64,000 nucleotides of DNA from Candidatus Latescibacterota bacterium (GCA_965248355.1 OZ252098.1:4128001-4192000); one strand, 5' to 3'; shown: positions 17,033-64,000, counted from the stretch's first letter. Numbers and translations: made by a program. The notes: a model not told the origin generated them from the letters alone.

Positions 17033-17123
<91 letters not shown>

Positions 17124-17124
17124 C

Positions 17125-17217
17125 GGAGAGATGACCGAGTGGTCGAAGGTGCACGACTGGAAATCGTGTGTGGCGTTTATAGCGTCACCGAGGGTTCGAA
17201 TCCCTCTCTCTCCGCCA
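17125..17217 (+). tRNA. tRNA-Ser(GGA)
   Basis: GGAGAGA/TCTCTCC stem, CT-GGA-AA loop, long variable arm, CCA; 1-nt spacer from the previous tRNA. Confidence 0.95.
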
Positions 17218-17232
17218 GTTCAAGAATCCGGT

Positions 17233-17308
<76 letters not shown>

Positions 17309-17361
17309 TTTTCCTCGATGGGGCCGCCCGGGGCAGATCTCTCGGGCTGGCTCCCGCAGCA

Positions 17362-17636
17362 GCAGGCCGTGCTAGATGGGGAGTTAGCGGTGCCCTGCAC
17401 CCGCAATCCGCTCTAGCGGGATCGAATCCCCGTCCGAGGTCCACAAGTCGTCTGCCGGCCGGAAACCGGAGGGCGTCGAGAGCCGGATTCCGCGCAACGC
17501 GAGGCTTCCGAACCCCGTCAGGACCGGAAGGTAGCAGCGGTAAGAGGCTGACGCGTGTGCCGCGGAGGTCTCTGGCTGGAGCCCGGCGGTCACGGGCGGT
17601 TGGCGGCGCGGGATCGAAGACGGGTGCACGGTCTGC
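17362..17636 (+). ncRNA. ffs: Large bacterial SRP RNA with Alu domain
   Basis: Helix 8 TCAGGACCGGAAGGTAGCAGC at ~17518; 5' GCAGGCCGTGC pairs with 3' GCACGGTCTGC; 5' GGGGAGTTAGCGGTGCCCTG Alu motif; directly upstream of dnaX. Confidence 0.88.
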
Positions 17637-49559: not shown

Positions 49560-49620
49560 AAGCTAGGAAAACCCGCATTGGGGGACAACGCTGGACGCAC
49601 CCGGAGAGTCCGGCTATCCT
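49560..49620. promoter_or_regulatory. Back-to-back putative sigma70 promoters
   Basis: Minus: TTGTCC-17-TAGCTT (49588-49560); plus: TGGACG-17-TATCCT (49592-49620). Confidence 0.45.
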
Positions 49621-49634
49621 CTCCGGCCTTCGCC

Positions 49635-51188
49635 ATGACCTCGAGAACCCCACCGCCGCGCTACCGCGTCATCTTCAACTGGGACGGCGACAGCCTGGCC
49701 TACGGCGAGCATCCGCAGTCGGCGGAGCAGCTCGTGGACCACATGTACGGCTCCCTCGAGGGCACCCAGGTGGACGCCGTGTTCTGGAGCATCGGCAGCC
49801 ACGAGGCCCTCTGGCCTTCCGAGGTGCACGAGCGGGAAGGGGAGCGCACCGGCCGCGTCTACGCCTCCATGCGCGCCATGCGCCACGCCGAGAATGTGTG
49901 GAGCCTCTTCGAGGCGGGCGAGAACGTGTACCAGGCCATGGTCGAGCGCGGACATCAGCTCGGGATGCACGTCTACGTCTCGATGCGGATGAACGACAAC
50001 CACTTCTACAACACCCGTCCGCGGGAATTCAAGAAGCTCGACAAGGGCACGAAGCTGCGGCAGGACCACCCCGAGTGGCTGCTGGACGTCGACGACGTGC
50101 CCGAGAGCCGCGGCATCGGCTCCTGGAACTTCGCCCACGCCGAGGTCCGGGAGCACAAGCTCTCCTACATCAGCGAGGCCTGCGCCCTGGCCGACTGGGA
50201 CGGCGTCGAGCTCGACTGGCAGCGCCATCCCTTCCATCTGCCCCAGCACGACGGCTACCGGCTGCGCTACGTGCTCACCGACCTGCAGCGCGCCGTCCGC
50301 CGCATGGCCGACGGGATCGCGGCGGAGAAGGGGCGCCCCTTCCACGTGGCCTCGCGCGTGGCCACGACCCTCGAGTCGTGCCGGCGCATCGGCTACGACG
50401 TCCCCCGCTGGTGCAGCGAAGGCCTGTGCGACGTCCTCATCGGCGCCGGCGGCTCGTCCACCGACCCCGGCTTCGAGGTGGCCGGGTTCAGGCGCCATTC
50501 CGACGGCACCGGCATCCGCCTCTACGGCGGCTTCGACAGCTCCTACCGGCAGGAGGCCGCCCGCCTGGTGAGCCGCGTCGAGTGGCGCGAGGCCTTCTTC
50601 CGCGCCGTGGCCGCGGGTTATCTCGACGAGGGGGCGGACGGGATCTACACCTTCAACTGGTTCCCGAAGAAGGCCGACTGGACCGGGCTCCTGAGCACCC
50701 TCGGCGCCGAGGAGACCCTGCGGGGCAAGGACAAGATCTACTCGGCCCTGCGCCGCGGTCCTACCTGGCTGGACGACCCCTCGGCCAACGCCGTGAACGA
50801 CCGCATCCACGGCGAGACCTCCGTGGCGCTGATGCCCGGCCTCACCGGGGACGGACCCACCTTCACGCTCAGCTTGCACGACGACTTCTCGGCCGGGGCG
50901 CCAAGGCCGGGTTCCCTGCAGCTGCAGATCGAGATGGCCCACTGGGCGCCCGGGGACGCCGTCAAGGTCACCCTCGACGGCGAACCTCTCGGCGAGCCGG
51001 CCATCCGCGACGCGGCGGAGAGCGGCCCTCCCTACGTATCGGAGAACAAGTGGCTCCTCTGGGACCTGGATCCCGAAGGCATGGGAAAGGGTCCGCACAC
51101 CGTAAAGGTCGTCCTGATCAACCGTGACTCGCGGCTCGACCCGCCCCTCAGCGTCGAGCACGTCGACCTCCACGTGAGCTACCGGTAG
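49635..51188 (+). CDS. GHL10-like TIM-barrel putative glycoside hydrolase
   Basis: YRVIFNWDG, SMRMNDNH, HPEW, DWDGVELDWQRH, GADGIYTFN. Confidence 0.65.
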   Translation: MTSRTPPPRYRVIFNWDGDSLAYGEHPQSAEQLVDHMYGSLEGTQVDAVFWSIGSHEALWPSEVHEREGERTGRVYASMRAMRHAENVWSLFEAGENVYQAMVERGHQLGMHVYVSMRMNDNHFYNTRPREFKKLDKGTKLRQDHPEWLLDVDDVPESRGIGSWNFAHAEVREHKLSYISEACALADWDGVELDWQRHPFHLPQHDGYRLRYVLTDLQRAVRRMADGIAAEKGRPFHVASRVATTLESCRRIGYDVPRWCSEGLCDVLIGAGGSSTDPGFEVAGFRRHSDGTGIRLYGGFDSSYRQEAARLVSRVEWREAFFRAVAAGYLDEGADGIYTFNWFPKKADWTGLLSTLGAEETLRGKDKIYSALRRGPTWLDDPSANAVNDRIHGETSVALMPGLTGDGPTFTLSLHDDFSAGAPRPGSLQLQIEMAHWAPGDAVKVTLDGEPLGEPAIRDAAESGPPYVSENKWLLWDLDPEGMGKGPHTVKVVLINRDSRLDPPLSVEHVDLHVSYR

Positions 51189-51219
51189 CGCCGCCGCCGC
51201 GCACCCAGGAGCAGCCCCC

Positions 51220-52758
51220 TTGGCCGAGAGACCGTACCGGATCATCTACAACTGGGATGGCGCCCCCCACCACTACGACGAGCACCCCCAGGCGATGGAG
51301 TCCTTCCTGCGGAGGGTCTATGCCCCGCTGGCCGGCACCCAGGTGGACGCCCTGTTCTGGTGCATGGGGATCCACGAGGCCACCTGGCTGTCCGACGACC
51401 TGGCCGTGAAGGGGGATTCCGCCGCCCGGGTCTACGACAGCGTGCTGGTCATGAGGGATGTCGAGAACCTGCGGTCCATGCTCGAGGGGGGCGAGGATCC
51501 GTACGCGGCCATGGTCGCCCGGGGGCGCGAGCTGGGCATCGACGTCTGGCCTTCGATCCGCATGAACGACCAGCACTTCTGGAACATCCAGGACCTGGAG
51601 ACGATGCAGCGGTCCACGGTCAACGAGATGACGGCGCTGCGCAAGGAGCATCCCCAGTGGTGTCTGGGGGAGCACGCCCCGGGCTGGTGCGCCACCTCGT
51701 GGAACATGGCCGTCCCCGAGGTGCGCGCCCACAAGCTCGAGATGATCACGCAGGCCTGCCGGCTGGCCGACTGGGACGGCGTCGAGCTGGACTGGCAGCG
51801 CCACGCCTTCCACCTGCCCGCCAACCACGAGTACCGGCTGCGCTACGCCCTCACCGACCTGCAGCGGGCCGTGCGCGAGATGACCCGGGGGCTGGCCGAG
51901 GAGCGGGGCCGGCCCTTTCCCGTGGCCGTCCGCGTCGCCGCCACCCTGGAGTCCTGCCGGCGCGTCGGCTACGACATCGAGACCTGGGTCGAGGAAGGCC
52001 TGTGCGACATCCTCATCGGCGGCGGCAACTCCGGCACCGATCCGTGCTTTGAAACGGAGGAATTCCTGAGACTGGTGGAGGGCACCCAGATCCAGGTCTA
52101 TCCGGGCTTCGACTTCGACACCCGGCAGCAGGCTGACCGCCTGATCCCCCACGGCCGCTGGCGGGACCGCTGGTTCGCCGGCATGGCGCAGGGCCACCTC
52201 GACCGCGGCGCCCACGGCATCTACGTCTTCAACTGGCACGCCGACGAGACCATGCGCCGGGAGTCGTTGACCACGATCGGTTCCACCGGGACCCTCCGCG
52301 GCCTGGACAAGGCCTACACCGCCGTGCACCGCAGCACCGGCGGGAACCCCCTGCGCAAGGACGCCGAGCGGGACGACCGCATCTACGGCGAGGCCCCCGT
52401 CGACCTGCACCGCACCCTGACCGGCGACGGCCCCACCTTCCACCTGACCACCCACGATCCCGGGGCCGCCGGCGTGCAGCTGCTGATCGAGATGGCCCAC
52501 CACTCCCCCACCGGCGACGAGGTGGCCGTAACCCTGGACGGCGCGGTTCTGGGCGCGCCCGAGGTGCGCAACCACGTAGCGGAGAATCCCCAAAACCCCG
52601 CCGACGTGGACGAGAACAGCTGGCTGGTGTGGGACCTGGATCCGGCCCAGGCCGCCTCCGGGGCCCACGAGATCCAGGTCGTCCTGCTCAAGCGGGATCC
52701 GCGGATTCGGCCGCCGCTGACGGTGGCCAACGTCGAGATCTGGACGAGCCATGACTGA
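51220..52758 (+). CDS. GHL10-like TIM-barrel putative glycoside hydrolase (tandem paralog)
   Basis: Same motifs as the upstream gene, including identical ADWDGVELDWQRH and LTGDGPTF. Confidence 0.65.
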   Translation: MAERPYRIIYNWDGAPHHYDEHPQAMESFLRRVYAPLAGTQVDALFWCMGIHEATWLSDDLAVKGDSAARVYDSVLVMRDVENLRSMLEGGEDPYAAMVARGRELGIDVWPSIRMNDQHFWNIQDLETMQRSTVNEMTALRKEHPQWCLGEHAPGWCATSWNMAVPEVRAHKLEMITQACRLADWDGVELDWQRHAFHLPANHEYRLRYALTDLQRAVREMTRGLAEERGRPFPVAVRVAATLESCRRVGYDIETWVEEGLCDILIGGGNSGTDPCFETEEFLRLVEGTQIQVYPGFDFDTRQQADRLIPHGRWRDRWFAGMAQGHLDRGAHGIYVFNWHADETMRRESLTTIGSTGTLRGLDKAYTAVHRSTGGNPLRKDAERDDRIYGEAPVDLHRTLTGDGPTFHLTTHDPGAAGVQLLIEMAHHSPTGDEVAVTLDGAVLGAPEVRNHVAENPQNPADVDENSWLVWDLDPAQAASGAHEIQVVLLKRDPRIRPPLTVANVEIWTSHD

Positions 52759-52820
52759 GGCCGTGTCGAAACCCACGTACCGCGCCGCCATCATCGGGGC
52801 CGGCCGCATGGGCGGCCTCC
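52751..52820 (+). pseudogene. N-terminal stub of a Gfo/Idh/MocA oxidoreductase cut by the group II intron
   Basis: ATG overlapping the upstream gene end; MTEAVSKPTYRAAIIGAGRMGGL Rossmann GxGxxG, then intron GTGCG. Confidence 0.75.
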
Positions 52821-54758
52821 GTGCGCCGGTCACACCGGCGAGGTGTAAGATGTGAAAGTCATCTGTGTCGAAGGTGTAGCGAACCACGACAGCCCCGAGT
52901 CATGCGTCGGTGCGGGTAACCGTAGTGGCGAAGCGTTGGCAGGGGGAGGTGTAGGTCCGGTATTGAGCCGCGAAAGCCATGAACCACTCCGGGAGGCCGA
53001 GACGGTGGAGGACGAGCGAAGGCCATACCTGACGCTGCGATATCGCGAGCGGTGTCGGGCTCCCGCGCGGTCAGAGACCCGGTGCATGCACCCAAGCACC
53101 TCGTGCGGGAACCGGGAGGTCCCGCGCCTGGCCCGGCCGGATGGCGGCCGGGTCCGCAAAAGGAACCCGTTCAGGGGACACTGGCGATGAACGGGCGCGG
53201 GAAGTCGGACAGCCCCATAGTACCTGCGAAGCCCTCGAACCAAGGCCGCGCGGCTGCGACGCGGCCGGCGGAGGGGGTGGAGGGAAGGGGGGGTTGCCCA
53301 AGGGCAACTCGGGCGAGCCCACCAGGTCCCGGACGCAGAGCCGGTCCGACCTGCAACAAGCGCTTGACCGGGTGCGCCAGGCAGCGGTTCGAGATCGGAA
53401 GGGGCAGTTCACGGCGCTCTGGCACCACGTCTACTGTGTGGATCGTCTCCGGCAGGCCTACTTCGGCCTGAAGCGCAACGCCGCCCCGGGGGTGGACCGC
53501 GTGACGTGGCACAGCTACGGCGAGGATCTGGAGGCGAACCTGACAGATCTGTCGGCGCGGCTGCGACGCGGAGCCTATCGAGCCCGGCCGGTGAGGCGGA
53601 CCTACATCCCGAAAGCGGATGGACGGCCGCGGCCCCTCGGCGTGACCGTGCTGGAGGACAAGATCGTCCAGCGGGCCACCGTGGAGGTGCTCAACGCCGT
53701 GTACGAGGCCGACTTTCTCGGATTCAGCTACGGTTTCCGCCCGGGACGCTCGCCGCACATGGCGCTGGACGCGCTGGCGGTGGGGATCCAGCAGCGGAAG
53801 GTGAACTGGGTGCTGGACGCAGACCTTCGTGGCTGCTTTGACGCCATCGACCACGATTGGCTGATGAAGTTCGTCGAGCACCGGATCCGCGACCGGCGCG
53901 TCCACCGCCACCTGAAGAAGTGGCTGAAGGCGGGCGTGCTGGAAGAGGGGCAGTGGCGGCAGGTGGAGGCGGGCGTGCCTCAGGGGTCCAGTGTAGGCCC
54001 TTTGTTGGCCAACGTCTACCTGCACTACGCCTTCGACCTGTGGGCCCAGGACTGGCGGCGGCGGCACGCGAGCGGGGACGTGGTCCTCGTGCGCTTCGCC
54101 GACGACATCGTCTGTGGGTTTCAGCAACGGTCGGATGCCGAACGCTTCCAAGCCGAGTTTCGCGTACGCCTGGCGAGGTTCGGCCTGGCGGTGAACCCCG
54201 AGAAGACGCGCCGGGTCGAGTTCGGCCGCTTTGCGGCGGCCAATCGACGGCGGCGCGGCGAGGGGAAACCCGAGACCTTCCACTTCCTCGGCTTCACGCA
54301 CAGTTGCGACAAGACGAAGAAGGGGAGGTTCATCGTGCTTCGGCAGACCCAGAAGACGCGCATGCGGCGCAAGCTGAAGGAGGTGAAAGCCGAACTTCGG
54401 CGACGGCTGCATGACCCCGTAGACGACGTAGGAGCGTACCTGCGGAGCGTGGTGGTCGGGCACTTCCGTTACTATGGGGTGCCTCGTAACGGTCCGGCGT
54501 TGAGCTCGTTCCGCCATGCCGCGGTCTGGCTGTGGTGGCGTAGCCTTGCAGCGACGGACCCAGCGTCACCGATCGCATCGCAAGCTCCTGCGGCGTTTCC
54601 GCGTATGGGTCGCGCACTTCATCCCCTCGGCGCATATCCTCCAGCCCTATCCCGAGCAGCGCCTGCGCGTCATGACCCAAGGGAGGAGCCCAGTGCGCTA
54701 ACCGCGCTCGCTGGGATCTGTGGAGGGGGCTGTGGGCAACCATGGTCCCTACTCCGAC
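52821..54758 (+). mobile_element. Group II intron, copy 1 (IIB-like, En-minus)
   Basis: 5' GTGCG; domain V GAGCCCAGTGCG...CGCTGGGATCTG at ~54686; domain VI ending CCCTACTCCGAC at 54758; RT ORF in domain IV. Confidence 0.93.
53187..54701 (+). pseudogene. ltrA: Group II intron reverse transcriptase/maturase with apparent frameshifts
   Basis: APGVD, YIPK.DG..RPLG, SYGFRPGR, VLDAD, GVPQG, RFADD, FLGF; frame breaks at the G7 run ~53287-53293 and at ~54548 (C-terminal PYP in another frame). Confidence 0.88.
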
Positions 54759-55692
54759 TTACGCTTCCGCTTCGATTTCGTCGATGAGTTCCTTGAGACG
54801 AGCATAGTTCGTCCGCATCGCATCGACGGGGGAACCACCGGGGGGACGGAAATGGGTCGCCACCGCCAGCACCGCGTCGCATCGGTAGTCGCGCAATTGA
54901 CGCAGGACCGCTCTGAAATCCACATCCCCATCGCCGATGGGACGGTACTCGAATTGCAGATGCTCACCATCGGCGAGGTGCAGGTCCTTTGATGTGGAGC
55001 CCGTGCAGATATGGCCGCACATTGTCGAAACCGGCAGAGGTCACATCCGCCTCGCCGCAGTTGAGGTTGTCGGCCGGACCCCACATGACCTTGATTCTCG
55101 GTGAGCCGACGCTTTCCGCAACGCGCCGGAAGTTCCCGGTCGTGTTGGTGTAATTCCAGGGCATCATGGAGAGGGCAACATCGACGTCGTATTTCTCGGC
55201 TTGCTCCACGACCAGCGAGAACGCCTTCACCAGTTTCTCCATATCCGCATCGGCGATGATGCCACCGCGGGTGTGCCAGCGCATCGGCCAAGTGGGCTTG
55301 CCGCCGCCGTACTCCCCGGGCCAGGCAAAGGTGAACGAACAGACAGCGCCGACTCCCAGGCGGGAGGCGATCTGCATCGCGCGGACCAGATTGTCGAAGT
55401 CACAGCGGAATTCCGGATGCTCCTGCATCCCATCCAGGTCGAGCTCGGTCAGGTGCACCTTCTTGAACGAGTTTTCCGCCGCTATGAGGTGGAGCTTGAG
55501 GCCGTGGTTGGACACGCGGGCAGCCATGTCGTCTACCTGGGCATCGGTCATTTCGGCGATCGGGGTCTCATCGCGCAAGCGCGGGAACCAGACGTACTCG
55601 GCACCGATATCCTTCGCCGTAGCCAGGGCCTGGTCAAAGGGCAGGTCCAATTCGGGTAAGTACATGCCGAGCTTGAACCGGTAATCTGCCAT
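54759..55692 (-). pseudogene. Sugar phosphate isomerase/epimerase (xylose-isomerase-like TIM barrel) with a 1-nt frameshift
   Basis: AGGAGG RBS; LHIK / DLH broken at ~54988; IGDGDVDF in the second frame; stop TAA at 54759 abuts the intron 3' end. Confidence 0.8.
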
Positions 55693-55811
55693 CAGTTACC
55701 TCCTGAACGTAGTGGGTGAAGACGCCGATCAGGTCGCAATTGCTCCCTCCTGTTCAAGCTAGCGTTTGAAATTGAATCGCCCCGAGTTTTCCGGAGACTC
55801 GGTTGTTTGAG

Positions 55812-57034
<1,223 letters not shown>

Positions 57035-57257
57035 GACTCCAATCCTCTCAAGAAATGGAGCCTCCGGCAACCCCGGGGCGGTTCACTCGACGGGAGGCGA
57101 GGGTTTTGGTGACTTCGCCTCTCACGAGGGTCAGTTGATCCTCAACCGGGATCGCACCTGGCCGCGGGCGGGAATGCGCCTACGGCCGCGAGGGGACTGA
57201 GCCTCGATCGGAGGCGAGGGCTTCGGCTCTCGCCTCTTTCTTGTTCTGCCCACGGAC

Positions 57258-57468
57258 CGACAGACCGATACGAGTGCAGAGCTTGCTGTGAGGGCTTTGT
57301 GCAGGGAAGTTGGATTGGCCTATCGGATCAGCAACCGTGACCTTCCTGGAAGCCCAGACATAGCCAACCGATCCAAGAAATGGGCGATCTTCGTCAACGG
57401 ATGTTTCTGGCATGCCCACCGGAACTGCCGTCGCCTTGCCCCGGGCCGCGACCACACGCCAAGGACTA
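57258..57468 (+). pseudogene. Vsr (very short patch repair) endonuclease fragment
   Basis: RQTDTSAELAVR, LPGSPDI, IFVNGCFWH; cut by ISAzo13. Confidence 0.7.
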
Positions 57469-58766
57469 AGGCTTTGTCCCGAAACAGATGATTCACTTCA
57501 ACCCTCAGTGGCCGGCCGGATCGTGTAGTTCCAATCCCCGTGGAACGCATGGGGCGAGAGATGGATCCGCTCCATTTGCTCGTCCTTGACGACCACGGCC
57601 TTGGGATACGCTCGCTTGTCGATCTCGGCGCGCACGCGAAGCCCTTTCTTCGTTGTCGTCCGGCCGATCAGGTTGACTACCGTGGCCAGACTGACCAGAG
57701 GTTGGCCTCGCCAGTTCATGGCGATATAGGAGAACAGGCGATGCTCGATGCGGTTCCACTTGCTCGTGCCCGGAGGATAGTGGCAGACCGTGATCGTCAG
57801 GCCCGTGCGATCGGCCAAGCGCTGCCATTCCCATTTCCACAGCCGCAGTCTCGGACCGTTGCGGCCCCCCGCATCGGCCGTGATCCACAGGTGCGAGGCC
57901 GCCGGGTAGGCCGGACGACCCATGCGTTTCCACCAGCTGCGGATGGCGTTCACCGCGAAGTGGGCGGTGTCGTGGTCGACGCCGACGCTGACCCAGCCCT
58001 CGTTGCGGCCCAGGTCGTAGACCCCGTAGGGAATCGCCTGGCCCTGGGCCGGGATGATGAAGTCGTGGACCTTCACGCGCTCCGGCTCGCCCTTCGGACG
58101 CCATTGGCGACCCACGTTCTTGAAGTCGCCGATCAGCTCCTTCTTCTTGGTGTCCACCGAAATGACCGGCTGGCCTTGGGCCTGGGCCCTTCGGACCTGG
58201 TCGTGGAGGTAGTGAAACGGGGCGTCCCGATCCGGGTGTTGCGTGCCTTCTTTCGTCTTGCGATTCGCCTGCAGCGTGTAGCCGAGCTCGTGCAACAGTC
58301 CGTGGACGAGGCCAGGACTCACCGAATGGCCCAGGGCCTGCAACTCGACCGCCAACTTGCGGACGCTCTTCGACGTCCATCGCAAGGGGCTGTCGTCCGG
58401 CGCCCCGGCGGTGACCGGCTCGAGCAGGGCGTTGAGGTCCGACAACAGCGTCACGTCGGTGTCGACGCGCCGCTTGCGGCCGCCGCCCGGCCGACGCACA
58501 CGGCCGGAGTCCAACGGGGCGTCCGACCGCAGTTCCTGCAGGCCGCGAGCGATCCGGGTCCGCGACAGGCCCGTCGCACGGGCCACCACCGCAATGCCGC
58601 CATGTCCCAGGGCTTGCGCCTCCGACGCGGCCCACAAGCGTCGCGTGCGCTCGTTCAACACCGGCGTCAAGGCTTCGTATTTCGCCCGCAGGGTGCTTTC
58701 CGTGTCCACCCGTCAAGGATAACACCTTTCTATCAGAAAGAACAGCGTTTATTTCTGCGCAGTGCC
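57469..58766 (-). mobile_element. ISAzo13 family insertion sequence
   Basis: Imperfect TIRs GGCTTTGTCCCGAAAC / GGCACTGCGCAGAAAT, flanked by TAA on both sides. Confidence 0.8.
57498..58709 (-). CDS. ISAzo13 transposase
   Basis: LNERTRRLWAA, RRPGGGRK, ISVDTKKKE, YPPGTSKWNRIEHRLFS, FHGDWNY. Confidence 0.92.
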   Translation of the reverse strand: MDTESTLRAKYEALTPVLNERTRRLWAASEAQALGHGGIAVVARATGLSRTRIARGLQELRSDAPLDSGRVRRPGGGRKRRVDTDVTLLSDLNALLEPVTAGAPDDSPLRWTSKSVRKLAVELQALGHSVSPGLVHGLLHELGYTLQANRKTKEGTQHPDRDAPFHYLHDQVRRAQAQGQPVISVDTKKKELIGDFKNVGRQWRPKGEPERVKVHDFIIPAQGQAIPYGVYDLGRNEGWVSVGVDHDTAHFAVNAIRSWWKRMGRPAYPAASHLWITADAGGRNGPRLRLWKWEWQRLADRTGLTITVCHYPPGTSKWNRIEHRLFSYIAMNWRGQPLVSLATVVNLIGRTTTKKGLRVRAEIDKRAYPKAVVVKDEQMERIHLSPHAFHGDWNYTIRPATEG

Positions 58767-59014
58767 TAAGTGGTTGATTGCGTTACGTGGTCCGGCAGCG
58801 GTGACCCGACGAAGATGATGTCGACATCGCTGCCCAGGAGATCCTCGAACCGGGTATAGGCCTGGGGAATATTGTACCTGTCGGCGATGGGCCGAACGGT
58901 CTCTTCGTGGCGGGTGCAGAACGCCGCCACCTCCGTCTCCGGCATCACCCTGAAACACTGGAGTGCCCCTTCCCCGCGCTTGCCCACGAATCCGACCTTG
59001 AGTGGCAGGTTCAT
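58766..59014 (-). pseudogene. Gfo/Idh/MocA oxidoreductase truncated by ISAzo13
   Basis: ATG coupled to upstream TGA; LKVGFVG, DVDIIFVGSP.P.H then ends at the IS end. Confidence 0.75.
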
Positions 59015-60048
59015 CAGACGTTGTCTCCAAACTGTTCGATGCTGGCCGGCAACTCGCCATCGGGCAGGTAGAAGTCCGCGCTCAAATCTACGGCGACCGG
59101 CTGATTGGTCTGCATCGCTTCCACCGCTTTTTCGACGATGAGCGTGGGGATGCAGGCTTCCCAAACATCCATGGGGCTTTCACCACCGTCAAGGCAGTAC
59201 TTCGCAAACATCTCCATCTCTTCATCGAAGCCGTTGTGATAGGCATTCTCTTCGATGCCAGGCTCATCGGTTCCCTGGAAGATGAGATTGCCAAAGCGGA
59301 CGGTCGCGGCGCTGATCGGTCCGGCCATGACCTCGGCGTAATGCTTGGGCAGATATCCACCCTGGCCGACGACGCCGTACACGGAGGTGGCGAGCCCGCC
59401 GTTGGCGAAACGGATATTGATAGTGCTGGTGTTGCTCGGTTCACCACCGTACCCCATGGCGTTGATTTCGACCGGCTGTGAACGCATGACATGCCAGATC
59501 CAGTGGAGGTTGTAACCGGCCGCATCGAGTACGCCATTGCACCCCAGGGGCCCCTCGGGATCATTCGGTTTGGCGTTCTCGTAGCGCGTGCTCGAGAGTC
59601 GGCACAGGAACAGGACGAAATACGGTTGAGGGATGACCTCGCGCAGTCGTTTGGTAACCGGTGAGTGTTTGAACCACCAGCCACCCATGAGCTTGACTCC
59701 TGACTCGTGGACGGCCTGCTGCAGACGCCGGGCTTCGTCGAGGGTGATGGCCAACGGTTTCTCGGCGTAGATGTGCTTGCCGGCGGCGCAGGCGTCGATC
59801 GCTATCTCGGCGTGGGTATCGTGAGTCGAGAAGATGAGGACCGCATCGATGGAATCGTCCGCGAGGACGCGCTCCATGTCGGTGGTGTGGTAGGAGGCGC
59901 CGTACTCCTCCGCACGACGTCGAGCAGCCTCTTCCGAGATGTCCATGGTGGCGACCAGGTGCATGTCGGGTGACTCGAGCACCCTTGGCAGGTGGGCGCC
60001 GCTTATTCCGCCGCAGCCGATGGCGGCCACATTGAGACGGGTGGTCAT
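59014..60048 (-). CDS. Gfo/Idh/MocA family oxidoreductase
   Basis: IGCGGI, IDAVLI, AGKHIYAEKP; GGAG RBS at 60057-60054. Confidence 0.9.
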   Translation of the reverse strand: MTTRLNVAAIGCGGISGAHLPRVLESPDMHLVATMDISEEAARRRAEEYGASYHTTDMERVLADDSIDAVLIFSTHDTHAEIAIDACAAGKHIYAEKPLAITLDEARRLQQAVHESGVKLMGGWWFKHSPVTKRLREVIPQPYFVLFLCRLSSTRYENAKPNDPEGPLGCNGVLDAAGYNLHWIWHVMRSQPVEINAMGYGGEPSNTSTINIRFANGGLATSVYGVVGQGGYLPKHYAEVMAGPISAATVRFGNLIFQGTDEPGIEENAYHNGFDEEMEMFAKYCLDGGESPMDVWEACIPTLIVEKAVEAMQTNQPVAVDLSADFYLPDGELPASIEQFGDNV

Positions 60049-60189
60049 GACAGCTCCGTGCGCCGGCTAAACCGGCGAGGTGTAAGATGTGAGAGTCATC
60101 TGTGTCGAAGGTGTAGCGAACCACGACAGCCCCGAGTCATGCGTCGCGTCGGGTAACCGACGAGGCGAAGCGTTGGCAGGGGGAGGTGT

Positions 60190-61585
60190 GAGGTCGTGTC
60201 AAAAGGTGTGTAAACGAGATCAGGCGGCCCTCTTGTTCCCTTCCCTGGTAGAGGCGTCCTCTTGGATCGGTTTTCCGTCCTGGTATCTCCGACCGGCGTA
60301 GACCGCCGGCAGGAGCTCGGGCGCGTTGAGCTTGCGGAATCGTGTCTCGGCCACCCTCAGCAGGCGCCAGATGAGGGCGGTGGCCCCCTGGACTCGCTTG
60401 TAGCGCTTGCCCGCGTTGGTCCGCAGACGGACCGAGGCAAAGGGGCTCTCCACCGGGTTCGTCGTTCGCAGATGTTTCCAGTGCGCCTCCGGGAAATCGT
60501 AAAACGTGACCATGCGATCCCAGTCGCGCTCGAGGGTGGCCGCCGCGGCCGGATAGGCCTCGCCGTAGCGAGCCACGAAGCGATCGCGTCGTCTCTGGGC
60601 TTGCTGACGGGTCTTGGCCGTGGGGATCTGCGTCAGCAGCGCCCGGGCGGCGCCCTGCACGCGCTTGGGCAGGTCGTCGAGGACGTTGAGGATCTTGTGA
60701 TTCCAGCAGCGCTGCTGCGCGGCCTCGGGCCAGACCTGGTCGACGGCGCTCCAGATCGGCAGGCCGCCATCGGCCAGCATCAGGCGCGGCGCCGGCAGCC
60801 CGCGGTCGCGAAGATCGCGCAGCACGGCTCGCCACGACTCGGTGGACTCGCGATGGCCGGGCCGTATCGCCAGGATCTCCTTGCGGCCGTCGCTCAGGGC
60901 CCCGATGACGACCAGCAACGCCGCCTTGTCCTTCTCCAGGCCGGCCTTCACGTAGATGCCGTCGGCCCAGGCGTAGACCAACTCCCGGTCGTCCAGGCGC
61001 CGCTGCTGCCAGGTCTCGAACTGCTCTTCCCAGGTGGCCCGCAGACGGGCGATGGACGAGGGCGACAGAGGCGCCCCGTCGCCCAGCAGGCCCCGCAAGG
61101 CCAGCTCGAAGTCGCCCTGCGACAGCCCGTGCAGGTAGAGTTCGGGCAGCAGCCGGGTCACCTCCTGCGTGCGTCGCTGGAACAGCGGCAGGATGCGGCT
61201 CTCAAAGCGCTCCTCCAGGCCTCGAATCCGCGGCCGTCTCACCTCGATGGGGCCCGACATCAGCGCCAGCCGCCGCGGCTTGCCGTAGCCGTTGCGCGAG
61301 CCCGGGGCGTCCACCGCCGACCGGCGCGCATACCGCGTACGCCCGAGCGCTTCGGTCACCTCCTCCTCCAGGATCCGCTGCAGCAGGTCCTGGATCCAGC
61401 CCCGGACCCATCCTTCCAAGGTCTCCCAGGTGGGCATGGACGCGCGGGGGATCTCCAACATAGATTCCTTCACGGCGACTCTCTCCTTCCAAGCCCGGCG
61501 TCATCCGGGCGGTTTGTGGTGTGCTGCTAAAATAGGAAGGGTAGGGTCGCCTTTTCTCTTTTTCCACACCTTTCGATAGTAACTC
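60190..61585 (-). mobile_element. IS256 family insertion sequence
   Basis: Imperfect TIRs GAGGTCGTGTCAAAAGGTGTG / GAGTTACTATCGAAAGGTGTG; 8-bp target duplication GGAGGTGT (60182-60189, 61586-61593). Confidence 0.92.
60220..61473 (-). CDS. IS256 (Mutator-like) transposase
   Basis: RNGY, LYLHGLS.GDF, WADGIY, QRCWNHK, LRTTNPVES. Confidence 0.93.
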   Translation of the reverse strand: MKESMLEIPRASMPTWETLEGWVRGWIQDLLQRILEEEVTEALGRTRYARRSAVDAPGSRNGYGKPRRLALMSGPIEVRRPRIRGLEERFESRILPLFQRRTQEVTRLLPELYLHGLSQGDFELALRGLLGDGAPLSPSSIARLRATWEEQFETWQQRRLDDRELVYAWADGIYVKAGLEKDKAALLVVIGALSDGRKEILAIRPGHRESTESWRAVLRDLRDRGLPAPRLMLADGGLPIWSAVDQVWPEAAQQRCWNHKILNVLDDLPKRVQGAARALLTQIPTAKTRQQAQRRRDRFVARYGEAYPAAAATLERDWDRMVTFYDFPEAHWKHLRTTNPVESPFASVRLRTNAGKRYKRVQGATALIWRLLRVAETRFRKLNAPELLPAVYAGRRYQDGKPIQEDASTREGNKRAA

Positions 61586-62030
61586 GGAGGTGTAGGTCCG
61601 GTATTGAGCCGCGAAAGACATGAACCACTCCAGGGGGCCGAGACGCTGGAGACCGAACGAAGGCCATATCCGGCGCCGCGATATCGCGAGTGGCGCTGGG
61701 CCCCTGCGCGGTCAGAGACCCGGAGCATGCACCCAAGCACCTCGTGCGGGAGCCGGGAGGTCCCGCGTCTGGCCCCGGTCGATGGCGACGGGGTCCGCAA
61801 AGGGAACCCGAATAGGGGATACCGGCGATGAACGGGCGCGGGAAGTCGGACTGCTCCGCAGTACCTGCGAGCCGGAAGTGTACCCCGTCAACTGGACAGG
61901 AATTGGGCTTGTACAAGCGAGAGTCTCGAGATGTAATGGAGCCGTACTGCGCCCCGGCGCTGGGACCGAAGCCCCGCCTCCCGGACTTGCACCCAGGCCG
62001 GGCCACCGAGGCCGTGAGGAGCCCCCGCGC

Positions 62031-62858
62031 TCAGGCCGCCCGGTGGTAGACATCGCTGGGGGTCTCGTAGTCGAAGGCCTGGTGCGGCCGCTCGAGGTTG
62101 TAGAAGCGGAAGTAGGCCGCCACGCCCTCGATCAACTCGGGGACGCTGTCGTAGGCCTTCAGGTAGATGTCCTCGTACTTCAGGGAGCGCCACAGCCGCT
62201 CGATGAAGATGTTGTCCAGCACCCGGCCGCGGCCGTCCATGCTCACCCGGGCCCCGGCCGCCTCGACCCGCCCGGTGAAGGCGGTGCTGGTGAACTGGGC
62301 CCCCTGGTCGGTGTTGAAGATCTCCGGCCGCCCCTGGCTCAGGGCTTCCTCCAGGGCCTCCAGGCAGAAGGCCGCGTCGAGGGTGTTGGAGACCCGCCAG
62401 GCCAGCACGTAGCGGCTGAACCAGTCCATGACCGCCACCAGGTAGACGAAGCCGGAGGGCATCGGCAGATAGGTGATGTCGCTGCACCACACCTGGTCCG
62501 GCCGGTTCACGGTCACCCCTCGCAGCAGATACGGATAGACCCGGTGCTGAGGGTTGGGGGTAGTCGGTCGCGGCCGGGGATAGATCGCCTGCAGGCCCAG
62601 GGCCTTCATCAGGCGGTGCACGCGCTTGGGATTGACCGGGTAGCCGTCCCGCCTCAGGGCCGCGCAGATCCGGCGCACGCCGTAGACCGGGTGCTCGGTG
62701 TAGATCCGGTCGATGGCGTTCATCAGGTCGAGGGTGAGCCGATCCGGCGCCTCCGGGCGGTAGTAGAAACTGGAGCGGGCCAGCCCGAGCAGTTGGCACT
62801 GCCGATGCACGCTCAGCGGGCCGGGGTGCGGCTCGATGAGGGCGCGGCGCTCAGCCAC
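62031..62858 (-). CDS. IS3 transposase OrfB
   Basis: [38 protein letters not shown]. Confidence 0.92.
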
Positions 62859-63144
62859 CGAGAGCCTCGTGTTTTTTTTGAAGCCACTCCAGTTCCATCT
62901 GCAGCCGCCCGATCTGCTGGTAGAGCTCGGGCACCAAGGCGGCCTCGTCGTCGGCCCGGCGGGTCCCGGGGCCCCGGAAGACCTCGGGCAGCCGCTCCAG
63001 CAACTGCTTCTTCCAGCCGTGGATCTGGCTGGGGTGGACGGAGAACTTGTGGGCCAGCTCGTTGACTGTCTGCCGTTCGCGCAGAGCCTCCAAGGCCACC
63101 TTGGCCTTGAACTGCGCCGAATGCGTCTTGCGTTTCCTCGTCAT
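62851..63144 (-). CDS. IS3 transposase OrfA
   Basis: [34 protein letters not shown]. Confidence 0.92.
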
Positions 63145-63222
63145 CCAAGCCCCTCCGGACAGTGGGTCGGTGGACGCAAAGTCTCGCTTAGCCACCTGTC
63201 CAGGATTTGGGGTACACTACCG

Positions 63223-64000
63223 CCCTCGAACAACGGCGGCGTGGCTGTCACGGCGCCGGCGGAGGGGGTGGAGGGAAGGGGGCAGCCCAAGGGCAACTCG
63301 GGGGAGCAAACCAGGTCCCGGGCGCAGATCCGGAGCGACCTGCAACATGCGCTCGACCGGGTACGTCAGGCAGCGGAACGTGATAGGGAACAGCAGTTTG
63401 CGGCGCTCTGGCACCACGTCTACCACGTTGACCGACTTCGGGAGGCCTACCTCGGCCTCAGGCGCAAGGCCGCACCGGGGGTGGACGGCGTGACGTGGCA
63501 CAGCTACGGGAAGGATCTGGAGGCGAACCTGACAGATCTCTCGTTGCGGCTGCAACGCGGAGCGTACCGAGCCAAGCCGGTGAAGCGGACCTACATCCCG
63601 AAGGAGGATGGACGGCAGCGGCCCCTCGGCGTGACCGTGCTGGAAGACAAGATCGTCCAGCGCGCCACCGTGGAGGTGCTCAACGCCGTGTACGAGGTCG
63701 ACTTTCTCGGTTTCAGCTATGGTTTCCGCCCGGACCGCTCGCCGCACATGGCGCTGGACGCGCTGGCGGTGGGCATCCAGCAGCGGAAGGTGAACTGGGT
63801 GATCGACGCGGACATTCGAGGTTGCTACAATGCCATCGACCACGAGTGGCTGATGAGGTTCGTCGAGCACCGGGTGAGCGACCGGCAGGTCCGGCGGCAC
63901 ATCAAGAAGTGGCTGAACGCCGGGGTGCTGGAAGAAGGGGAGTGGCGGCGAGCGGAGGAAGGTGTGCCGCAGGGCTCCAGTGTCGGGCCCTTGCTGGCCA
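63223..64000 (+). CDS. ltrA: Group II intron RT/maturase of copy 2, partial (5' part cut by IS3; runs off the window)
   Basis: APGVDG, YIPKEDG.QRPLG, SYGFRP, VIDADI, GVPQG. Confidence 0.88.

Follow-up and report, generated by a model that had tools for sequence, protein, structure and literature searches.

A group II intron lineage placed antisense to Shine-Dalgarno sites and a probably decayed patch of mobile DNA between two of its copies in a Latescibacterota chromosome

The window analyzed here is a stretch of 64,000 nucleotides from a Candidatus Latescibacterota bacterium (GCA_965248355.1 OZ252098.1:4128001-4192000), toward the end of which two co-oriented group II intron copies (copies 1 and 2) bracket 5.3 kb of DNA, the cargo (54759-60057), that extends from the ribosome-binding site (RBS) of one gene to the stop codon of another. 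A reading made from the sequence alone (hereafter the sequence-only reading) had proposed a recurrent gene-capture route, in which recombination between introns excises promoterless RBS-to-stop cassettes that integrate at a resident intron, and had named a one-off rearrangement between copies as the alternative. We consider it probable, at roughly 60%, that the region is a decayed patch of mobile and foreign DNA bordering a core chromosomal segment and not a capture device. Had a capture system been at work, it would have amounted to a new way of shuffling genes; the evidence points instead to ordinary rearrangement, or an assembly join, at a repeated retroelement, and the one-off rearrangement is the better of the two earlier readings. 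The finding of lasting interest is why the ends are gene-exact, namely the placement of this intron lineage antisense to Shine-Dalgarno (SD) sequences.

Placement of the intron lineage at antisense Shine-Dalgarno sites

Our sample of the lineage, drawn from five phyla, comprises the 13 copies with the conserved 5' core: the two window copies (W1 and W2), seven loci in metagenome-assembled genomes (MAGs), found by one scan of a genome collection with a 32-nt conserved stretch, and four plasmid copies from Burkholderia, Variovorax, Ralstonia and Paraburkholderia (L001-L009, L011 and L012 for the copies outside the window). The 3' end is also readable in ten of them, with domain VI (D6) reading GGAGGGGG..CUACUCCGAC (AAC in L012). 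In all copies except one, CTCC plus 0-1 nt closes the 5' exon and a CAT is located 5-10 nt upstream, which corresponds to GGAG-N5-10-ATG on the opposite strand. The inference of the sequence-only reading that the introns inserted at SD sites holds across the lineage, in 12 of the 13 copies. As a background, a CAT at such spacing accompanies 180 of 2161 CTCC sites (8.3%) when the host part of the window is pooled with five 20-kb loci. The intron runs antisense to the adjacent gene at 11 of the 12 CTCC sites, and at eight of them an antisense open reading frame (ORF) of 54-1051 codons opens from that ATG. Five of these eight ORFs have family or annotation support, namely those at W2 (Gfo), L001, L006, L008 and L011, the last four with Pfam matches (F5/8-CHU_C, periplasmic-binding, PTA_PTB and AHSA1 among them). 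At the Burkholderia copy (L008), the annotated coding sequence (CDS) starts 11 nt from the intron.

The pairing of the intron with its 5' exon mirrors this placement. Exon-binding site 1 (EBS1), a GGAGG in a hairpin loop of domain I, pairs over 4-6 bp with the CCTCC that closes the 5' exon, and loop and exon covary among the copies (AGGAGG/CCTCCT in L001, UGGAGA/TCTCCA in L002). Even the one exception to CTCC, L012, combines a GGACAC loop with a GTGTCC exon. The EBS1 assigned to the lineage by this covariation is itself a Shine-Dalgarno-like sequence, GGAGG. Two other tracts of copy 1 were considered as EBS1: GGGGGAGG at 52939-52946 was rejected, because betaproteobacterial relatives have GGGGTACG there, yet use CTCC sites, and GGGAGGCC at 52991-52998 was set aside, as it lies within a paired segment of the Rfam consensus.

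An ordinary copy of the lineage could be compared with its empty site. The 5' flank of the copy in Ralstonia UW386 (L011) is present in 42 other Ralstonia megaplasmids, and in Ralstonia RS24 (L021) the two exons are contiguous at 1454|1455, exactly the insertion point of L011. The GGAG of an SRPBCC gene follows this point immediately, and the point itself falls within the final codons of the upstream arsR-type gene, which overlaps the SRPBCC start by 8 nt (L021 1436-1460 versus L011 1489-1501). Judged from these two sequences, the empty and the occupied site show that a relative inserted precisely in the past and that an ordinary copy has matched exons, which the sequence-only reading had itself named beforehand, together with copies never bracketing gene-precise cargo, as speaking against capture. 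For the Burkholderia copy, no other record with an empty site was found. The Ralstonia intron replaces the last codons of the arsR-type regulator and should be polar on the downstream gene.

Several points weigh against taking the pattern at face value. The 4-11 nt window for the CAT was chosen with the data already in view, although it equals the usual SD spacing. No convincing antisense gene was found at two of the 12 CTCC sites (L004 and L009), the L007 site runs off its contig after 33 codons, and at W1 a mimic lies within a Rossmann gene, on its sense strand. Neither a fixed intron-binding site 2 (IBS2) nor an upstream hairpin was consistent across copies by eye; between W1 and L004, which are 94% identical, the sequences at -6 to -12 are unrelated (a comparison of closely related copies, not a formal EBS2 search). 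A crude, E. coli-centred scan detected no outward sigma-70-like promoter at either window junction. How real SD sites would be chosen among CTCC sites is unexplained, and selection after insertion could yield part of the pattern. No terminator-like site was found at either window junction.

In a sister group (domain VI GCGGGGGG..CUACCGCGAU; nine plasmid copies), the 5' exons are unrelated. Two sister-group introns, on a Cupriavidus oxalaticus plasmid (L017 1130-1200) and a Ralstonia solanacearum megaplasmid (L020 1130-1200), stand directly after near-perfect palindromes, CTGTATGAATATACAGT and CTGTATGGATATACAGTA, which resemble CTGT-N8-ACAG, a motif that we take to be the LexA/SOS box. The palindrome may be another operator-type target. 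A third one, on a Burkholderia anthina plasmid (L019 1195-1205), begins right after an annotated porin CDS (142-1200) in sense orientation, which is also a placement at a gene edge but of a different kind from that of the SD-antisense lineage. Two Latescibacterota loci retain only the first ~138 nt (L005 9948-10085) and ~175 nt (L006 10084-9910) of the intron, and these remnants still abut the GGAG-ATG of intact genes of 289 and 449 codons; the break in L005 is at the same position as an IS256 insertion in window copy 2, after GGAGGYGT. In a distant DNA search with copy 1, 4440 plasmid records matched, of which 3707 were from Klebsiella, at 60-80% identity, and only eight of the 4440 span 80% of the intron or more. 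The Klebsiella matches may represent a different intron class with a common reverse transcriptase (RT) region.

The two window copies and the DNA between them

The features of the region are collected in Table 1. All junctions of the sequence-only reading were reproduced: the gene stub at 52751-52820, copy 1 from 52821, the stop codon at 54759-54761, the GGAG up to 60057 and copy 2 from 60058.

Table 1. Introns, genes and insertion sequences (IS) at the right-hand end of the window. IEP, intron-encoded protein; IBS1, intron-binding site 1; D5, domain V.
Feature	Position	Strand	Basis
Truncated Rossmann-type NAD-binding gene, 5' stub (23 codons + 1 base)	52751..52820	+	Sequence reading
Group II intron copy 1 (W1), 1938 nt, GTGCG...GAC	52821..54758	+	Rfam RF02005, 174.9 bits; D5/D6 covariation
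EBS1 (GGAGG), in domain I hairpin loop GGTGGAGGAC at 53004-53013	53007..53011	+	Covariation with 5' exon
Reverse transcriptase/maturase (IEP), pseudogene	53141..54787	+	Pfam RVT_1, E 8e-39; indels versus L004 and L007
Xylose-isomerase-like TIM-barrel (sugar phosphate isomerase/epimerase) gene, frameshifted	54759..55692	-	Pfam PF01261
IS3-family insertion sequence; orfA 56714-57070, orfB 55812-56717	55706..57086 (ends approximate, by eye)	-	Pfam; NCBIfam transpos_IS3
Vsr (very-short-patch repair endonuclease) gene fragment	57201..57491	+ (same strand as introns)	Pfam PF03852, E 4e-17
ISAzo13-family transposase gene	57498..58709	-	Pfam PF07592, E 2e-135; NCBIfam NF033519, 562 bits
Second Gfo/Idh/MocA gene, N-terminal fragment	58766..59013	-	Pfam PF01408
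Gfo/Idh/MocA oxidoreductase, 344 aa, intact	59014..60048	-	Pfam PF01408, E 1e-24
GGAG Shine-Dalgarno core of the 344-aa Gfo gene (= CTCC, IBS1 of copy 2, on +)	60054..60057	-	Sequence reading
Group II intron copy 2 (W2), pieces 60058-60189, 61586-61873, 63222-64000	60058..64000	+	Rfam; repeat offsets; BLAST versus copy 1
IS256-family element inside copy 2	60190..61585	-	Pfam PF00872; NCBIfam NF033543
IS3-family element inside copy 2; orfA 62851-63195, orfB 62031-62858	~61874..63221	-	Pfam; NCBIfam

Both copies belong to the bacterial ORF-containing group II introns, as indicated by the GTGCG at 52821 and 60058 and by the domain I-IV fold of RF02005, for which the score of copy 1 (Table 1) compares with a gathering score of 49. 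A search with RF00029 gave no match at E<=1. The domain V/VI consensus fold, derived from 12 relatives, comprises 28 pairs, 11 of them with compensatory changes, a bulged TA in D6 and the ends ..GAC/..GAU; D5/D6 of copy 1 ends ..CTACTCCGAC at 54758. Pfam RVT_1 was found in both window copies, and the IEP gene is disrupted in both. Relative to the intact genes of L004 and L007, copy 1 carries indels of +2 near 53294 and +1 near 54544, which shift the reading frame of the N-terminal ~36 and C-terminal ~75 codons. The intact L004 IEP passes TIGR04416 (349 bits, cut-off 300), and the best PDB match of the IEP is, by a narrow margin, GsI-IIC RT. Rhizobial and Ralstonia introns of this kind are presumably those called class E. 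Copy 2 is matched by Rfam at 60092-60222 and 61576-61721, and the window ends before its 3' end. The IS256-family element within it has terminal inverted repeats of 25 nt and an 8-bp target duplication (GGAGGTGT), and the IS3-family element has imperfect inverted repeats of 28 nt.

The two copies are 86.8% identical to each other (1031/1188 aligned bases), whereas each is closer to a copy in another MAG: copy 1 to L004 from a Gemmatimonadaceae MAG (94.1%, 1818/1931), which it resembles end to end in 100-nt windows, and copy 2 to L007 from a Planctomycetota MAG (94.7%, 1125/1188), which it resembles over all 1188 visible bases. By these identities, copies 1 and 2 are of independent origin, stemming from two sublineages, and are not duplicates. 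As far as can be read from the sequence, nothing in the intron-bracketed region is now mobile by its own means, and both introns are dead.

At copy 1, the 5' junction CCTCC|GTGCG is legitimate. Its 5' exon, the stub at 52751, opens with an ATG overlapping the stop codon of an upstream 512-aa gene, encodes the 23-codon N-terminus of a Rossmann-type protein (MTEAVSKPTYRAAIIGAGRMGGL) and ends in CATGGGCGGCCTCC, a mimic of an antisense SD-ATG. The stub gene is probably Gfo/Idh/MocA, as the sequence-only reading had it; tblastn found no remainder of it in the whole window. A 553-codon antisense ORF at this exon was rejected as a shadow of the 512-aa plus-strand gene, where only the plus frame passed the filter on GC content at third codon positions (GC3). 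The three bases directly after copy 1 are TTA, the complement of the isomerase TAA stop codon, and the joined exons read GGLLTLPLRFRR-stop, which bears out the earlier statement that the 3' flank does not continue the gene of the 5' exon. The 3' junction is consistent with a target at which the GGAG of the next gene immediately followed a TAA stop.

The cargo is a mosaic, of which about half is other mobile DNA or fragments, and not the clean RBS-to-stop cassette that had been envisaged. Position and stop codon of the isomerase gene at base 54759 stood up to inspection, but the gene itself is not intact. A frameshift near 54964-55022 splits it over two ORFs, with the PF01261 match divided between profile positions 2-187 (ORF 54964-55692) and 183-247 (ORF 54759-55022), while its TAA stop abuts the 3' end of copy 1. 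The adjacent IS3-family element contains an ALIL frameshift pseudoknot (56640-56756; Rfam RF01497, 101.9 bits). It ends ~5 nt from the isomerase's own SD (AGGAGG, minus strand; window 55693-55710), so that the start of the isomerase gene has also been separated from its former upstream DNA. The ISAzo13-family element truncates the second Gfo gene, whose ATG (59013) directly follows the stop codon of the first Gfo gene and which is cut off after ~80 codons; tblastn found no remainder of it in the window. The 344-aa Gfo protein, with NCBIfam matches below cut-offs only, is the sole intact non-mobile gene product of the cargo. The claim that the cargo ends at 60057 with the RBS of a Gfo gene abutting the co-oriented copy 2 proved correct, the GGAG lying 5 nt upstream of the Gfo ATG (60048). 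Of the cargo genes, described earlier as all antisense to the introns and sugar-catabolic, the isomerase and Gfo genes are on the minus strand and the Vsr fragment is on the plus strand. According to Pfam, the mobility or recombination enzymes among the 13 ORFs from 51-64 kb are RT and IS transposases only, without an integrase.

The first 52.7 kb of the window are core chromosome with a GC3 of 0.85-0.97 (alaS, dnaX, metK, ptsI, hemH, cytochrome b, SRP RNA, tRNAs). The lower GC content noticed earlier in the cargo was confirmed by calculation: the bracketed segment has 58-63% GC versus 68-72%, and a GC3 of 0.76-0.79 versus 0.85-0.97 on the host side (~0.92 left of the junction). IS elements within this segment have a GC3 of 0.85-0.94, which fits residence of the segment in a high-GC genome.

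On the host side, the Rossmann stub is preceded by tandem paralogous genes of 536 and 512 aa (window 49578-52758; a 300-nt stretch is 75% identical) without a match in Pfam or NCBIfam. Their look-alikes in an atlas are clusters with PF02638 GHL10 in 14-24% of the members, which serves as a lead only; the two may encode enzymes resembling glycoside hydrolases and may share an operon with the truncated Rossmann gene. Further upstream, three tRNA genes and then a bacterial large signal recognition particle (SRP) RNA (162 bits) are located at 17033-17631, just upstream of dnaX; the large form of this RNA in a 70% GC genome is a taxonomic hint.

Origin of the gene-exact ends and the mismatched exons

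The exons of copy 1 cannot be a natural pair, which calls either for a rearrangement involving an intron copy or for a join made there in assembly; the breakpoint of the Rossmann gene coincides with the edge of copy 1. Retrohoming copies the intron RNA only and not the flanking DNA, and when two copies recombine by deletion, inversion or co-integration, the usual trace is a hybrid element flanked by the halves of two different target sites. In the reading we prefer, an intron of this lineage with the EBS1 GGAGG would insert into the strand complementary to an SD sequence, immediately ahead of GGAG-N5-10-ATG and in antisense orientation to the gene. In a tightly packed operon, a stop codon could abut the next SD (TAA|GGAG), and together with insertion at SD sites this packing would make the copies automatically delimit DNA from RBS to stop. 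Copy 2 would be an ordinary old insertion upstream of the Gfo SD that was later struck by two IS elements. Copy 1 would join the 5' exon of the SD-ATG mimic in the host Rossmann gene to a 3' exon at the isomerase stop codon, through one homologous recombination, whose direction is likewise deduced, between two co-oriented intron copies. Its simplest version would be the deletion of everything between them, and the lost 5' exon partner of the isomerase site would have ended in CTCC.

Further points count against this decayed-patch reading or limit it. The 3' exon of copy 2 lies outside the window, and a deletion cannot be told apart from integration of a circle. Copy 1 shows no mosaic, which is uninformative: over 74 nt at the 5' end and 50+60 nt at the 3' end its sequence is identical to that of the L007 type, a crossover within these runs would leave no trace, and the crossover test has no power there. 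Finally, an assembly chimera, too, would show GC3 changing sharply right at a repeat that different phyla have in common.

In such a chimera, contigs of two organisms or of two distant loci would have been joined through a near-identical intron copy, and no cell would have the left 52.8 kb next to the right 9 kb. In favour of this, GC3 shifts exactly at the repeat, from ~0.92 on the left to 0.76-0.79 on the right; the left side is core chromosome (alaS, dnaX, metK, ptsI, hemH), the closest relatives of the two introns are in MAGs of different phyla, and the intron is the only repeat of at least 100 nt that links the two sides. However, the IS elements on the right have a GC3 of 0.85-0.94, within the range of the left side, which argues mildly and not decisively against a false join. 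The IS insertions on the right with proper target duplications indicate that this part is correctly assembled, and copy 1 is uniformly L004-like without an internal switch, neither of which is decisive. On balance, we regard a false join as rather unlikely.

Integration of a circle would start from the same placement: recombination between two intron copies inserted at SD sites in a donor operon would have released a circle of intron plus RBS-to-stop cargo, which, as a one-off event, would have integrated by homologous recombination into an intron resident in the host Rossmann gene, with copies 1 and 2 as the two recombinant joints. The lineage does insert at SD sites, the copies are co-oriented, the cargo is lower in GC3, and the identical end runs of 50-74 nt would allow a crossover between sublineages without a visible mosaic. 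Nevertheless, this history takes four steps compared with one for a deletion, and the crossover must fall in the last 60 nt, because copy 1 is L004-like to the last variable position and copy 2 L007-like throughout. The cargo is also not a coherent cassette, and it is not evident how a non-replicating circle would have reached the recipient. Arrays of intron, cargo and intron, which the sequence-only reading expected elsewhere, did not appear: a second intron copy within 10 kb was found in none of the five related 20-kb loci. We consider a single capture of this kind quite unlikely. The broader proposition is decidedly doubtful as well, namely that a widespread lineage with an SD-like EBS1 homes to antisense translation-initiation regions and that recombination between its copies cuts out and re-inserts RBS-to-stop blocks, of which the window would hold one after integration.

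A dedicated system that routinely moves RBS-to-stop blocks, in the manner of an integron or a composite transposon, appears highly improbable to us. Gene-exact placement is a property of the lineage, and passages of PMC3001079 offer a conceptual precedent in the group IIC-attC introns, which are proposed to help form cassettes. Against this, a single bracketed segment has been seen, the five long loci contain no second copy nearby, and the normal copy has matched exons. Pfam found no integrase or other recombinase besides IS transposases in 51-64 kb, and both window introns are defective. We see no sign of a recurrent route.

Comparison with known intron and cassette systems

The target types of bacterial introns given in the relevant part of a 2015 review are homing sites, terminators and attC sites (PMC4424553). 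If the placement described here is a true targeting preference and not survivorship, the complement of SD sites would be a fourth kind of target beside these. In at least four phyla, copies of the lineage lie antisense on the 5' border of genes, with records from Gemmatimonadota-like, Latescibacterota, Planctomycetota and Betaproteobacteria. In the full text of freely readable papers, we found no intron lineage described as targeting the antisense strand of ribosome-binding sites. True targeting would raise the question of how a pairing of 4-6 bp finds real start sites. It would also predict polar effects on operons, given the Ralstonia copy inside the end of the arsR-type gene, and make the lineage a candidate for targetron-type tools aimed at gene starts.

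The group IIC-attC introns (S.ma.I2 etc.) insert into the bottom strand of attC, carry outward promoters driving the next gene and have a proposed role in cassette formation, according to passages of PMC3001079. Like the lineage described here, they insert opposite in strand to the genes around them, at a gene-boundary signal that recurs. They therefore sit between genes in arrays. Their target, however, is the attC stem-loop and not an SD complement beside a start codon. The window also differs in that Pfam revealed no integron integrase among the ORFs at 51-64 kb (attC was not specifically searched) and the crude E. coli-centred scan detected no outward promoter-like site.

With the class C (IIC) terminator introns, the lineage shares an IEP without an endonuclease domain and the use of a generic gene-boundary signal rather than one homing site, as outlined in part of PMC4424553. 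A short EBS1-IBS1 pairing (4-6 bp here) and the lack of a fixed IBS2 evident by eye may be further points in common. Unlike these introns, it follows no terminator-like site at either window junction, its sites being translation-start regions on the opposite strand, and the window ribozyme matches RF02005.

The IIB1 lineage at start and stop codons (Michel 2007, via the 2025 paper PMC12584367) is likewise tied to translation start and stop signals. As described in portions of PMC12584367, its introns are sense-oriented, are spliced out of the mRNA and have an insertion of 300-700 nt at the base of domain I, whereas the copies here are antisense and the whole 5' ribozyme part, from GTGCG to the IEP start, measures ~370 nt.

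The region does not qualify as an integron or cassette system on the ORFs at 51-64 kb (again without a search specific for attC), nor as a composite transposon, the flanking copies being only 86.8% identical and both defective. With rearrangements by homologous recombination between dispersed repeats such as IS elements or introns, it shares a hybrid element, copy 1, flanked by the halves of two target sites. The difference is that the repeat is here a retroelement with a gene-boundary target, which places the breakpoints exactly at gene ends.

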